A DNA stretch of 20,000 nucleotides from an uncultured virus (IMG/VR IMGVR_UViG_3300025009_000076) (IMGVR_UViG_3300025009_000076:58298-78297), one strand, 5' to 3'; counted from the stretch's first letter, positions 3,223 to 8,712 are shown. Notes: generated from the letters alone by a model not told the origin. Numbers and translations: made by a program.

Positions 3223-3234
3223 AGAGTTTATGCT

Positions 3235-3293
3235 CTTTATCTTAAATCTATCATAACAGAAGCCCTATATAGGTTGATGGATTTAAGATAAAG
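3235..3293 (+). ncRNA. AUAACAG-loop intergenic hairpin E (19-bp stem)
   Basis: CTTTATCTTAAATCTATCA (3235-3253) / TGATGGATTTAAGATAAAG (3275-3293), one G-U pair; ATAACAG (3253-3259) at the stem-loop boundary. Confidence 0.75.
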
Positions 3294-3344
3294 GATATAA
3301 ATCTAATCATTATATCCTAAAATAAAATCAAAGGAGGTAACAAA

Positions 3345-3452
3345 ATGAGCAAATTAAAATTACTCCAAGAATTCAAAAACATTTGCGATACTCATTCTAT
3401 TCCATTCACTTTTAAGTCATTTGACATGTTTCTTACTCATATTTCTAAATAA
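3345..3452 (+). CDS. small protein, 35 aa (below the ORF-track cutoff)
   Basis: Perfect SD AAAGGAGGT; MSKLKLLQEFKNICDTHSIPFTFKSFDMFLTHISK. Confidence 0.75.
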   Translation: MSKLKLLQEFKNICDTHSIPFTFKSFDMFLTHISK

Positions 3453-4289: not shown

Positions 4290-4330
4290 TCTTGTAAATG
4301 TCATAACAGCCATAACACGGACGTTCGAGA
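4290..4330 (+). ncRNA. AUAACAG-loop intergenic hairpin G
   Basis: TCTTG..AATGTC / GACGTT.CGAGA; loop ATAACAGCCATAACACG. The 3' arm is similar in sequence to hairpin D. Confidence 0.55.
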
Positions 4331-4369
4331 GGTTCAGAAGATATTTTTAAATTATTAGGAGGAATTATT

Positions 4370-5768: not shown

Positions 5769-6074
5769 ATGGAAAATATTAATAAAGCATTAGTAGATAT
5801 TAAAAGCCAAACTGGTCTGGAAATTAAGAACGAAAGCAGAGAAGGTATTCCCTTATTCAATGTTCCAAACAGACAACCATTTAAATTTAATTTAGAAATT
5901 AGTTATAATTCAATTAGAGGACAAGGAAGTTTTGAACTGCATTTTCCATCTCTATATGTCAAAGCAAATGACGTAAGAGAATTTTCTAACCAAGTAAATT
6001 TACTAACTTTCTTGATTGAGGATTTAAACAAAGCACTTAAAAAAGATTTCAGTAATGAATGGGTATTGCAATAA
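5769..6074 (+). CDS. hypothetical protein, 101 aa
   Basis: ORF with SD AAAGAGGT. Confidence 0.85.
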   Translation: MENINKALVDIKSQTGLEIKNESREGIPLFNVPNRQPFKFNLEISYNSIRGQGSFELHFPSLYVKANDVREFSNQVNLLTFLIEDLNKALKKDFSNEWVLQ

Positions 6075-6075
6075 C

Positions 6076-6150
6076 ACTGGTCTGAGCCAGTATAAAACGC
6101 CTTAAGCTCAGAGCGTTAGCAGGGTTGATAATAATCCTGCTAGGTGGTAT
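6076..6150 (+). ncRNA. pistol self-cleaving ribozyme
   Basis: P1 ACTGG (6076-80)/CCAGT (6087-91). Its loop TCTGAG forms a pseudoknot with CTCAGA (6107-12). ATAAA linker; P2 GCC (6099-6101)/GGT (6146-48); conserved TTAAG and GCGT segments; P3 TAGCAGGGTT (6117-26)/AATCCTGCTA (6133-42); GGT junction. Same order and spacing as the pistol consensus; predicted cut G6144/U6145. Confidence 0.9.
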
Positions 6151-6172
6151 CAAAAAAGAAAGGATGATTAAA

Positions 6173-6412
6173 ATGTATTATAAAAACGAGTGGAAAATGA
6201 TTTTATTAACAGGAGCAGGGAAGGAGGAACAAGAAGAACAAATAGTTGAAGGAGAATTAGTTCAAGAAGGAAATGATATTTTATTTAAAAGCAGAGAACT
6301 TAATATTGTCTATGATAAAAATATATGGCATAAACTTAATGAAGTATCTAATGAATGGAATAAGTTTATTTATCTATATGTTGAAAAGGATAATTATAGA
6401 CAGTTCCATTAA
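6173..6412 (+). CDS. hypothetical protein, 79 aa
   Basis: Start moved to ATG 6173 after GAAAGGATGA; the listed TTG at 6125 lies inside the ribozyme. Confidence 0.8.
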   Translation: MYYKNEWKMILLTGAGKEEQEEQIVEGELVQEGNDILFKSRELNIVYDKNIWHKLNEVSNEWNKFIYLYVEKDNYRQFH

Positions 6413-6443
6413 AAAGTAAAACTTATGGGAAAAATAATTTTAT

Positions 6444-6472
6444 TTGATTTTGTTCTTAGAATACATTACAAT
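6444..6472 (+). promoter_or_regulatory. possible sigmaA promoter for the HNH gene, overlapped by an inverted repeat
   Basis: TTGATT (6444-49), 17 bp, TACAAT (6467-72); inverted repeat TAGAATACATTA (6457-68)/TGGTGTATTCTA (6476-87). Confidence 0.45.
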
Positions 6473-6579
6473 ATTTGGTGTATTCTATAGAGTGAGAACT
6501 CTAAAATTATAAAGGAGGGTAGAGAGGAAAACTTAATATAGTTAAATAATAATAAATAAAAGAGGAGAGATATTAGAAA

Positions 6580-7479
6580 TTGGCAACAATAAAACAATTG
6601 GAAGCAATAGATAGACTAAGAAAAGAAAAGTTTGCAAGAGAACATAAAATTATAAACGGAGTTGACCATAAATTTTGTAATAAACATCACATTTATTTTC
6701 CAGAAGAAGATATATGGTTTCCATCAACATTAGAATTTTTTCATAACAGCAACAAAAATAAAACGGATGGTTTGCATCCTTGGTGTAAAAGATGTGCAAG
6801 CGACAAATCTAGCATTAATTATCTAGAAAATAGAGAAAGAAGTGATTTAGCTCATAAAAAATATGAAGGGTCTGAAAAACATAAAGCATGGTCTGCTAGA
6901 AATTATCAAATGTTTAAAGATAAGCAATCACAATGGAGAAAAGATAATCCAGAAAAATGTAGGGAATATTCTAAACAACATAGAATACATGATATTACAG
7001 AGGCTGAATGGAAGAAAGAATTAGAAGTATTTAATTATGAATGTGCATATTGTGGAATCAGTGAAGAAGAAAGTATAAAAATACTAAAACAAAGACTTCA
7101 TAAAGATCATGGAGACCATCTAGGAGCAAATGATTTAAGAAATAGCATCCCTGCATGTAGAAGTTGTAATAGTAAAAAACATCAGGATGACATAGATGAT
7201 TGGTATAAGAATAGAAAATTTTATACCGAAGAAAGATATAATAAAATTATCTGGTGGCTCACAGAAGGATATAAAGATTACATAGAAGACAAACCACCGT
7301 ATAGAATAATTAGGAAACAAAATGAGGGTAGAAAAGATTTTCATTGGGAGTTATGGACTGTTGATGAAATGAGGAATATGATGGAATGTATTGATATTAA
7401 AGGTAAAAGAAAAGAAATAATAAAAGATATTGAAGGAGGTATTTTAGATGAATACTTAATGCAAGAAACGGCTAAATAA
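6580..7479 (+). CDS. HNH (beta-beta-alpha-metal) endonuclease with Zn-binding motifs, 299 aa
   Basis: CAYCG...LHKDH...NDLRNSIPACRSCNSKK (CxxC, DH, N, CxxCN). N-terminal CNKH...F....KTDGLHPWCKRC Zn-ribbon-like domain. TTG start, SD GAGGAG. Confidence 0.85.
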   Translation: MATIKQLEAIDRLRKEKFAREHKIINGVDHKFCNKHHIYFPEEDIWFPSTLEFFHNSNKNKTDGLHPWCKRCASDKSSINYLENRERSDLAHKKYEGSEKHKAWSARNYQMFKDKQSQWRKDNPEKCREYSKQHRIHDITEAEWKKELEVFNYECAYCGISEEESIKILKQRLHKDHGDHLGANDLRNSIPACRSCNSKKHQDDIDDWYKNRKFYTEERYNKIIWWLTEGYKDYIEDKPPYRIIRKQNEGRKDFHWELWTVDEMRNMMECIDIKGKRKEIIKDIEGGILDEYLMQETAK

Positions 7480-7483
7480 TAAA

Positions 7484-7846
7484 AACCTTGATCACATATA
7501 ATAATAGTAGTGGTTAAGGTTGGGTAGTTTTAAGGCATGAAAATCCATTGCCACGACTACATGGTCAGAACATTTATAACAGAACTCAATATTATTTACA
7601 TGAGATTTTCAAACGACCGAATAACGGACATTAGAGCGTTACGCAATTATGCGAAATGAGATTAAGTATTCCCCGTATTTGGTGAAAAACGTTGCTATAA
7701 CCTAACTGTACGTTATTCGTATAGTTAGAGTCCTAAGTAACAGTCTGTGACTTTAAAGACGCAGGGAGCGACTTTTAACGCTACCCAATATTGGGGAACG
7801 TCTTTAATAATTTAATAAATGCTTCGTATGTATTACAGATGAAGTA
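7484..7846 (+). ncRNA. candidate large structured ncRNA (about 360 nt), class not recognised
   Basis: Longest gene-free gap, GC-richer than its surroundings, with at least 7 consecutive helices and a long-range pairing TTCCCCGTATTTGG (7669-82)/CCAATATTGGGGAA (7785-98). Confidence 0.6.
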
Positions 7847-7873
7847 AAATAAAATCAAAGGATGTGAATAACA

Positions 7874-8014
7874 ATGACAAAAGAACAAATCAAACATTCT
7901 TGTTGGAATTGCTTGCTCCTTAACCTAGATAAAGCAGAATACAAATCCTGTATCAAAGGCCACAAACTAAAATTAATCTTCAATGTAAACGAATGCTCAG
8001 ATTGGGATGGTTAA
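7874..8014 (+). CDS. small Cys-containing protein, 46 aa (below the ORF-track cutoff)
   Basis: SD AAAGGATGTG; MTKEQIKHSCWNCLLLNLDKAEYKSCIKGHKLKLIFNVNECSDWDG (CxxC...C...C). Confidence 0.7.
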   Translation: MTKEQIKHSCWNCLLLNLDKAEYKSCIKGHKLKLIFNVNECSDWDG

Positions 8015-8054
8015 TATCGATACCCAAAATATGGTATAACAGTCGCACCATCCT
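8004..8054 (+). ncRNA. AUAACAG-bulge hairpin J, possibly also a terminator
   Basis: GGGATGGT (8004-11)/ACCATCCT (8047-54), with inner CGA/TCG and TACC/GGTA; ATAACAG (8036-42) bulged on the 3' side; T-rich downstream. Confidence 0.55.
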
Positions 8055-8091
8055 TTATCTAACTTTATTTTTATATTTATACTAAACTCTA

Positions 8092-8120
8092 TTGTAATCT
8101 TGTTCCAATATTGATATACT
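8092..8120 (+). promoter_or_regulatory. sigmaA-type promoter (extended -10)
   Basis: TTGTAA (8092-97), 17 bp, TATACT (8115-20) preceded by TGn. Confidence 0.7.
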
Positions 8121-8160
8121 AGTATTAATAAAGAAATAAAAATAAAAAGGAAGTGATAAA

Positions 8161-8364
8161 ATGGAAGTTGAAGAGAGAATTAAAAACAGTATCAACATTG
8201 AGTTCAGAGATTTTAATGGAAACAAACATCTTTATTACAATGAAGAAACGCCGTCTGAACAAATTAACTTTATTGGTTTTAGTATTGGAAACTTCATAAA
8301 ATCATTAGGTTGGCCTAATGACACTGTAAAAGAAATATTGAAAAGTATTGATGAAAATAGTTAA
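8161..8364 (+). CDS. hypothetical protein, 67 aa (monocistronic unit)
   Basis: SD AAAGGAAGTGA; flanked by its own promoter and terminator. Confidence 0.8.
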   Translation: MEVEERIKNSINIEFRDFNGNKHLYYNEETPSEQINFIGFSIGNFIKSLGWPNDTVKEILKSIDENS

Positions 8365-8378
8365 GGGATTGGATTTTT

Positions 8379-8403
8379 AGGGGAAGCAATTCCCTTTCTT
8401 CTT
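8379..8403 (+). terminator. Rho-independent terminator
   Basis: AGGGGAA-GCAA-TTCCCTT hairpin with a GNRA loop, followed by TCTTCTT. Confidence 0.7.
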
Positions 8404-8466
8404 AAAAATTTGTATATTGCATAAATTAGATCATAAATAAATTTTAAATAAAAGGAGAAAATACAT

Positions 8467-8712
8467 ATGAAAATCGGAACAAACGTCACAATCAAATTAA
8501 ATCTAATTCCTAATCAAATCTACGGAGGAGCAATATTTGTGCCTGAAATGGAAGAATTTTGTGGTAGAAGTGCAGTTATCACAGAGATATTATTTCCTGT
8601 TGTAAATGAAGGTGAAAGTAAATTTAGTTATGGATTAGGTATTGATATGAACAAGGAATTTGAATTTACTGATGAGATGTTGGATGTTGTGGAATTGGGT
8701 AAAGTAGCATAG
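8467..8712 (+). CDS. hypothetical protein, 81 aa, SH3-like
   Basis: SD AAAGGAG; MKIGTNVTIK...EMEEFCGRSAVITEI...FTDEML pattern. Confidence 0.85.
   Translation: MKIGTNVTIKLNLIPNQIYGGAIFVPEMEEFCGRSAVITEILFPVVNEGESKFSYGLGIDMNKEFEFTDEMLDVVELGKVA

Follow-up and report, generated by a model that had tools for sequence, protein, structure and literature searches.

What is the strongly folding sequence that lies between a free-standing HNH endonuclease gene and a small Cys-rich gene of an uncultured virus, and to which of its two neighbors does it belong? The window analyzed is a stretch of 20,000 nt that closes a virus record of 78,297 bp, whose completeness is estimated at 47%; the window has a G+C content of 29% and dense small ORFs on the + strand. 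The spacer between the HNH gene (ending at 7479) and the 46-aa gene (starting at 7874) is 394 nt long. The original prediction read positions 7484-7846 as one continuous, pseudoknotted large ncRNA of a new kind, either a partner of the HNH protein or a multivalent sponge for a factor that binds AUAACAG. The features of the locus and the matches to the spacer in related loci are collected in Table 1.

Table 1. Features of the window and extent of the spacer element in related loci (window coordinates unless a locus is named).
Feature	Position	Strand	Basis
Pistol self-cleaving ribozyme RF02679, full model, 60.1 bits	6076-6149	+	Rfam
HNH endonuclease gene, free-standing, 299 aa, part of a mobile cassette	6580-7479	+	Pfam, PHROG
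Hairpin 1, 12+3-bp stem-loop, 5 nt past HNH stop	7484-7521	+	-13.9 kcal/mol, z -5.4
Hairpin 2 (GTAGT/ACTAC around GGCA/TGCC), outside conserved unit	7524-7560	+	z -2.6
TATAACAG, start of conservation with L053 and L060, one copy of the phage-wide spacer motif	7575-7582	+	Alignment, BLAST bounds
Middle module (TATAACAG ... GAAUAAC GGAC AUUAGAG), shared with L053 and L060 type	7575-7640	+
Revised four-way junction: UUAG/CUAA closer with hairpins 7637-7658, 7669-7686, 7702-7728	7631-7736	+	RNAalifold
Three-way junction: AAGACG/CGUCUU closing a variable hairpin and a CCCA/UGGG hairpin (7784-7795)	7756-7804	+	MFE of 7736-7812
Terminal hairpin, 8+3 bp, 11 nt before Shine-Dalgarno	7820-7846	+	z -3.95
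A-rich spacer, Shine-Dalgarno AAGGA (7858-7862), GAAUAAC (7866-7872), before AUG	7847-7873	+	Sequence
Conserved Cys-rich 46-aa gene, syntenic anchor of all RNA relatives	7874-8014	+	Protein matches in relatives
phrog_3377 gene, labelled HNH endonuclease, before the 46-aa gene	L055:343-1098; L058:376-1095; L060:212-970; L068:270-1097
L039, identical copy			BLAST
L053	7575-7876 at 80%		BLAST
L056, L057	7704-7876 at 82%		BLAST
L060, L061, L062, L074	7575-7640 at 82% (66 nt) and ribosome-binding site		BLAST
L075	33 nt of hairpin 2		BLAST
L040-L042, L059	Last 18 nt only (ribosome-binding site)		BLAST
24 other loci of 37	Nothing matching		BLAST

PF01844 is the sole Pfam match of the HNH protein (E = 1.4e-5), and its PHROG matches are endonuclease VII/HNH families (E = 4.8e-17). 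Pfam finds the HNH domain only, in agreement with the earlier statement that the protein lacks RuvC motifs. The 46-aa protein is 69-100% identical in 33 full-length matches among 37 metagenome loci, 68-81% identical in the four truncated matches from these loci, and 72-100% identical in 7 viral loci; a family match is absent in Pfam, PHROGs, and Atlas. In all 37 + 7 relatives the gene has its own ribosome-binding site and AUG. Related phage records measure 55-227 kb; among those carrying the locus or the A5 hairpin element described below, three are rated 100% complete, at 101, 178, and 227 kb.

Folding of 7484-7846 on the + strand gives an MFE of -96.0 kcal/mol compared with -72.1 ± 5.4 for shuffles (z = -4.43, 0 of 100 shuffles equal). 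This outcome favors the original prediction, which had named folding no better than shuffled sequence as its own refutation. The z of the minus strand is -2.32. Of 220 windows of 363 nt taken across the 20 kb (mean MFE -60.7, sd 8.9), the region has the lowest MFE, and regression on G+C leaves it at -3.1 sd; shuffle z values of 34 background windows range from -2.47 to +3.19. All of the helices listed in the prediction were found where it had placed them, and the fold strength is spread unevenly among the pieces: z = -5.4 for 7484-7521, -2.6 for 7522-7561, -0.01 for 7562-7619 (TGGTC/GACCG with CTCA/TGAG), which is chance level, -3.5 for 7620-7735, -2.3 for 7736-7812, and -3.95 for 7813-7850. 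The conserved part alone has a z of -4.03 in the window (7575-7850), -3.49 in L053, and -2.82 in L056. The window and L053 favor partly different folds in 7635-7700.

A search of 5800-8600 with Rfam 15 at E ≤ 10 gave no family at the spacer, nor did the whole window at the gathering score, so 7484-7846 matches no Rfam family. Matches to mir-728, sau-6072, and mir-3910 were far under the gathering scores and were taken as chance. A group I or group II intron carrying a homing endonuclease was rejected because no intron family matches at E ≤ 10 in 5800-8600 and the 46-aa gene downstream has an AUG and a ribosome-binding site of its own. A coding ORF was also rejected: the sole ORF is 40 aa long (7537-7659), changes relative to L053 fall 4, 9, and 4 times at codon positions 1, 2, and 3, and codon periodicity is absent. 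The predicted new large ncRNA is thus borne out as an uncatalogued, strongly folding, noncoding sequence, and is not borne out as one RNA of 360 nt.

Homologs of the nuclease were compared with homologs of the RNA. The HNH-protein search returned nine loci: an identical copy that probably comes from the same phage, two full-length relatives (L003 and L004, 47-49% identity), and others that match only partially or distantly. In L003 the HNH cassette shows DNA homology over 6512-7386, starting ~68 nt before the start codon; in L004 it does so over 6643-7430, within the ORF. The homology therefore ends inside the ORF and nothing is shared downstream: the RNA is present in neither of the two full-length relatives with downstream DNA in view, and the downstream DNA of HNH relatives has no similarity to the spacer except in the identical copy. 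Conversely, the genes upstream of the RNA relatives are a 65-aa ORF (L053), a 63-aa ORF (L056/L013), and an endonuclease that belongs to a different family (in L060; phrog_3377, with a BLASTP E of 0.35 to the HNH protein of the window), so three of four RNA-bearing lineages lack this HNH gene. The proposal that the RNA guides or partners the HNH protein beside it, as omega-RNA does IscB, draws on an adjacency found in the window only; it is opposed by this distribution, by the missing RuvC domain, and by the position of the least conserved part, hairpins 1 and 2, nearest the gene. On these sequence comparisons co-occurrence already refutes the partnership, whose probability we put at next to nothing. 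The locus is a caution that adjacency alone is no ground for pairing a gene with a neighboring structured RNA. Upstream of the HNH relatives (L003:2860-2900 and L004:2880-2960), sigma-70-type promoters were seen by eye, with TTGACA, 17 nt, and TATAAT or TACAAT, which implies that these phages use host-type promoters elsewhere. The promoter in L004 is preceded by a canonical terminator.

Positions 7480-7876 were compared by BLAST with the upstream flanks of the 37 metagenome loci anchored on the 46-aa gene. Twenty-four loci have no match; five of these show <200 nt of upstream flank, and the visible part is of the short spacer type. The usual spacer in relatives is ~110 nt and is made of other elements. 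Where the element is present, the relatives keep parts only, and its predicted continuity as a single unit does not hold. L053 retains ~80% identity over 300 nt without coding constraint, and L056 resembles L053 minus ~100 nt between GGAC-UUUU and the 7702 hairpin. The mosaic junctions lie at 7575 and ~7700. Among 13 related virus records the element is absent or single and always in the same place, and only G001 (identical), G004 (3' part), and G006 (middle part, E = 3.5e-11) carry it. In L040-L042, whose 46-aa protein is the most similar (85-89% identity), the spacer measures 18 nt and the leader is absent, which means that the role of the leader, whatever its kind, is dispensable.

The wider distribution is narrow. 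The sequence is present in DNA runs whose labels are groundwater, soil, or freshwater metagenome, and no RNA run is among those listed. The GenBank phage collection had no match to 7400-7900 in distant mode or to the whole window in near mode. No new variant was found in contigs from four DNA runs; a 151-nt contig from a 2025 freshwater run matches 7488-7637 with 2 differences and one inserted A, and a further contig piece from the four runs is of the L056 type. Pattern scans of 185,579 species genomes with the two most conserved stretches of the element gave 0 matches each. A viral-contig scan with the middle motif found only two known contigs; the same scan with a 16-mer of the terminal hairpin gave 41 matches, 2 of them the known contigs and the other 39 taken as chance.

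The gene directly upstream of the spacer varies by lineage. It is the PF01844 HNH gene in the window, a phrog_3377 endonuclease in L060/61, which have the middle module, and in L055, L058, and L068, which have none of the RNA, an anti-repressor-like ORF6N gene in L075, and a small ORF in L053, L056, and most other loci. These differences mark the spacer as an insertion hot spot for accessory and endonuclease genes. Repair or recombination at the hot spot may explain why the lineages differ in the modules that they retain. The locus would then show a spacer turning into a patchwork after being targeted by unrelated free-standing endonuclease genes.

Hairpins 1 and 2 belong to a different part of this patchwork than the sequence that follows. 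Aligned with L053, the window loses all similarity upstream of a sharp break at TATAACAG (7575), which places both hairpins outside the conserved unit; the first 90 nt of 7484-7846 lie beyond the conserved part. Hairpin 1 is missing from L053, L056, and L060. Each of the HNH relatives has its own strong hairpin right past the stop. Because they directly follow the HNH stop and HNH relatives carry counterparts in that position, hairpins 1 and 2 are read as the probable 3' end of the inserted cassette, hairpin 1 being of terminator type. Hairpin 1 went unflagged in the terminator scan because its U run is 7 nt away. In L075 an analogue of hairpins 1 + 2 stands alone behind the anti-repressor-like gene.

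The predicted pairings were scored in three sequences, the window, L053, and L056. Over these, 81.5% of the cells of the predicted helices are paired. Several key elements fare poorly: AGCGTT/AACGTT pairs in 8 of 12 cells, the multiloop closer GGAC/GTCC loses 2 of 4 pairs in L053, and the long pseudoknot 7669-82/7785-98 pairs at 11 of 14 positions in the window and 9 of 14 in L053, where a new mismatch and a bulge fall inside its 6-bp G-C core. In L056 the 3' strand of the pseudoknot is letter-identical and the 5' strand is wholly absent. Run on the window and L053, RNAalifold proposes 29 pairs; 0 of them are broken, and three G.U<->A-U changes occur among them. In the revised model the four-way junction replaces AGCGTT/AACGTT and the 5' strand of the pseudoknot, which is used by the 7669-7686 hairpin. 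Two other long-range pairings, 7520-33/7775-88 and 7450-60/7661-71, found no support, one partner of each being missing in relatives.

The revised model has 94.4% of its cells paired, the shortfall coming from a 2-nt shift in the alignment and from a single U-U in L053; these pair counts are biased, as the structure was fitted to the same sequences. Helices 1-3 pair at 100% and helix 4 at 96.6%, and the alignment shift accounts for the low count of helix 5. The AAGACG/CGUCUU arms and CCCA/UGGG of the three-way junction are unchanged in the window, L053, and L056, and the latter two have a competing local hairpin, GACG-AAUAU-CGUC. In 3 of 3 sequences the terminal hairpin holds 11 of 11 pairs, and the changes that it carries are three one-sided wobbles (G.U<->G-C twice and U-A<->U.G); no U tract follows it, so it is not a terminator. 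Apart from the U-U, every change in the revised helices is one-sided and wobble-compatible, six in all (G.U to A-U or G-C), and since these would be A-C mismatches on the opposite strand, they point to an RNA of the + strand. Compensatory double changes number 0 among 48 revised pairs, a count from three sequences, too few for statistical power, in which shuffles equal the observed values. With three sequences, a fitted model, and 0 double changes, the structure is plausible and conserved in outline, not proven. The layout at the start site, a hairpin followed by the identical 18-nt UAAAAUAAAAUCAAAGGA and the start codon, is seen at both 7820-7876 and 3290-3345.

The same data bear on the possibility that the spacer is functionless recombination debris in the insertion hot spot, its hairpins being leftover terminators or spacer elements of former neighbors. 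This reading accounts for the patchy distribution, with the element wholly absent in the closest relatives, for the unrelated genes inserted at the spacer, for the 0 compensatory changes, and for the helices broken in L053. It fits poorly with a fold far above shuffles in three diverged versions, with substitutions in the kept hairpins that are nearly all wobble-compatible in a strand-specific way, and with ~80% identity across 300 nt in the absence of coding constraint. We regard debris as unlikely.

The explanation that we prefer, at about an even chance, is a composite spacer, in which the 3' hairpins of the HNH cassette (7484-7560) would be followed by an optional, modular, ~285-nt 5' leader of the 46-aa gene that acts in cis. 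Judged from sequence, the leader would run from TATAACAG (7575) to the ribosome-binding site and fold on the + strand into the four-way junction at 7631-7736, the three-way junction at 7756-7804, and the terminal hairpin at 7820-7846. Between the last hairpin and the Shine-Dalgarno there is an A-rich spacer alone. No terminator intervenes, so the leader is predicted to be read through into the 46-aa gene. Both ends of the RNA are putative. A sigma-70 promoter scan gave 8 sites in 6000-8600 and none within 7480-7873. The hairpins may act in cis on a polycistronic early message through protection of processed ends, processing, or translation control, and the AUAAC(AG) copies may serve a factor that is active at the many other AUAACAG spacers as well. 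The structured leader is seen in few related groundwater phages and is unlinked to the nuclease.

A free-standing, trans-acting ncRNA of ~280-360 nt, with its own promoter or cut from the operon transcript, would share with the composite spacer the strong fold in three lineages and the lack of an Rfam family. It would also suit a locus with a pistol ribozyme 1.4 kb upstream, where operon transcripts are cut. Such an RNA is distinctly unlikely given a 3' end without a terminator or U tract, no promoter match, and a position always directly before the same gene and nowhere else in the 13 related records. That lineages retain different halves is hard to square with a single folded unit.

The leader begins with a motif that is not peculiar to it. 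TATAACAG is the commonest 8-mer other than all-A/T words in spacers of related loci (30 of 286 distinct spacers); the motif is as frequent in spacers as the Shine-Dalgarno word, is often tandem, and occurs 5 times in the window versus 1.1 expected. In the record of the window there are 21 ATAACAG on the + strand, all within 47.6-66.3 kb, and 2 on the other. The distance from TATAACAG to the next start codon is 11-305 nt in uninterrupted spacers, with two outliers of 641 and 657 nt. Flanks of 66 motif instances fold better than shuffles (-22.4 versus -15.4 kcal/mol). The motif itself is unpaired at 4.35 of 7 nt in the MFE folds of these instances compared with 3.95 with shuffled flanks, which is no excess, and a preferred place of the motif in hairpin loops finds no support in the same figures. 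TATAACAG is doubtful as a -10 box: some copies are TGn-prefixed by eye, but there is no -35, the conserved final T is missing, and the distance to the next start codon varies as given above.

The AUAAC variants that had been placed at four helix junctions are conserved at 7576 and 7621 and not at 7697 and 7737, where L053 reads ATTAAG and GTCACAG and L056 likewise lacks the copies. With two of four copies conserved, the proposed multivalent platform or sponge for a putative AUAAC(AG)-recognizing factor is weakened. It gains from TATAACAG in 30/286 spacers, the + strand bias of 21 versus 2, the frequent tandem arrangement, the conservation of the 7575 and 7621 copies, and a third GAAUAAC between the Shine-Dalgarno and the AUG; it loses from the copies at 7697 and 7737 missing in L053 or L056 and from a motif not more unpaired than with shuffled flanks. 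We consider a sponge improbable. AUAACAG is nonetheless possibly a shared recognition site for a putative processing or regulatory factor. We know of no factor that binds AUAAC(AG). Among the literature matches listed for TATAACAG and AUAACAG there were primers, siRNAs, and similar, none of them relevant. Among candidate readers of TATAACAG, phage RNA polymerase gave 0 of 5 records with PF00940, a figure that carries no information because the control matched nowhere either, and 0 of 5 with PF00562 and a working control; a sigma factor was found only in G009.

Other AUAACAG spacers, often with two copies between the arms of long stems, lie at 2005-2090, 2506-2636, 3223-3343, 4290-4369, and 8015-8060 of the window and likewise at record positions 48591 and 51745. 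AUAAC...GGAC(G/A)UU is common to three spacers (2567, 4303, and 7621). The A5 element is a nested hairpin of ~100 nt that starts with CTGTGCTAGTGATTTAA and lies directly before the ribosome-binding site (L040-L074, e.g. L042:551-650). Its 18 distinct versions have 19 well-kept consensus pairs, one of them with four pair types (GU 9, AU 5, UA 3, and GC 1), and two AUAACAG copies in the apical part. It is single-copy in 9 viral contigs, has no Rfam match, and was not found by a pattern search of the record of the window. A further sequence, AAAATGTTATTTT(T/C)ATTTGG, recurs at spacer starts before different genes in relatives (e.g. L041:925-950 and L053:620-645); the ATG that it contains opens a mini-ORF only.

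These spacers can be drawn together into an RNA-level control system of 180-230-kb groundwater phages, in which one factor would read AUAAC(AG) on spacer hairpins and cut, protect, or silence early messages. A5 would be one element of the system, the leader at 7575-7873 its most elaborate target, and GUUAUUC/GAAUAAC a three-part translational switch. We hold this extension to be unlikely. The GUUAUUC apex (7712-7718) of hairpin 7702-7728, the best kept of the hairpins, is complementary to GAAUAAC at both 7619-25 and 7866-72; the switch finds no support in relatives, as L053 reads GGCAUUC, which breaks both pairings, and L056 has no upstream copy. The switch idea is therefore given little weight, the complementarity not being kept in L053. 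Should the leader and the AUAACAG hairpins prove functional, they would represent an uncatalogued cis-acting RNA family in the early operons of large uncultivated phages, and the pistol ribozyme in the same operon would point to an RNA-level organization of polycistronic early messages. The general importance is modest because the distribution is narrow and the leader is dispensable in close relatives.

The pistol ribozyme is the known RNA closest at hand. It sits in the spacer after ORF 5769-6074, and in L021, L023, and L046 the pistol 3' end is directly followed by AUAACAG and a Shine-Dalgarno. A pistol is recognized by its P1-loop pseudoknot and G-U cleavage junction. The spacer element occupies a spacer of the same operon and has a local likeness in linker, stem, and core (AUAA-N, a 4-bp stem, UUAG, and AGCGUUA), which raises the possibility of a degenerate or rearranged self-cleaving ribozyme derived from pistol. 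Positions 7620-7641 (AAUAAC-GGAC-AUUAG-AGCGUUA) resemble the pistol core of the window (AUAAAA-CGCC-UUAAG-CUCAG-AGCGUUA), and in L060 a 9-nt loop before GAAUAAC is complementary at 8 of 9 positions to the stretch after AUUAGA, the place of the pseudoknot strand in pistol. However, the helix layout differs, with three hairpins in place of the single P3, neither the window nor L053 has the pseudoknot strand, and the pistol model has no match in the region at E ≤ 10 or in L053, L056, and L060 at E ≤ 1. The shared 9-mer is estimated to arise by chance ~1 time in 10. A pistol origin is very improbable.

HEARO/omega-RNA with IscB resembles the locus in having a large structured RNA beside an HNH-domain gene. 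An IscB partner has a split RuvC domain plus HNH, whereas the protein here has one HNH domain and no RuvC, the spacer has no HEARO match (Rfam, E ≤ 10 in 5800-8600), and the RNA and the gene do not co-occur in relatives. The T7 RNase III sites and lambda boxB are hairpins in the spacers of phage early operons, where they mark sites of processing or of protein binding. The present hairpins likewise lie between genes of what would be a polycistronic early transcript, and the short conserved motif that recurs in many spacers can be likened to these sites. The two systems differ in that no sequence or structure match exists between them and the spacer, which is known from sequence alone.

The promoter-early stem-loop (PeSL) cassettes of T4-type phages appear to be the nearest described parallel (Arbiol et al. 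2010, PMC2839356). They are short conserved spacer elements with stem-loops, located among small non-essential early genes at insertion, deletion, or replacement junctions between close relatives, and are defined there by a strong sigma-70-like promoter and a terminator stem-loop (PMC2839356). A Gp23 search of related records gave 0 of 5 without a working control. The present element differs in that a promoter match is missing in 7480-7873, its length is 3 to 4 times greater, and it forms multi-helix junctions. As for the terminator, the scan did not call hairpin 1, which directly follows the HNH stop and lacks an adjoining U run. What the PeSL cassettes and the present spacer appear to share is stem-loop elements placed in spacers at the mosaic junctions between related phages.
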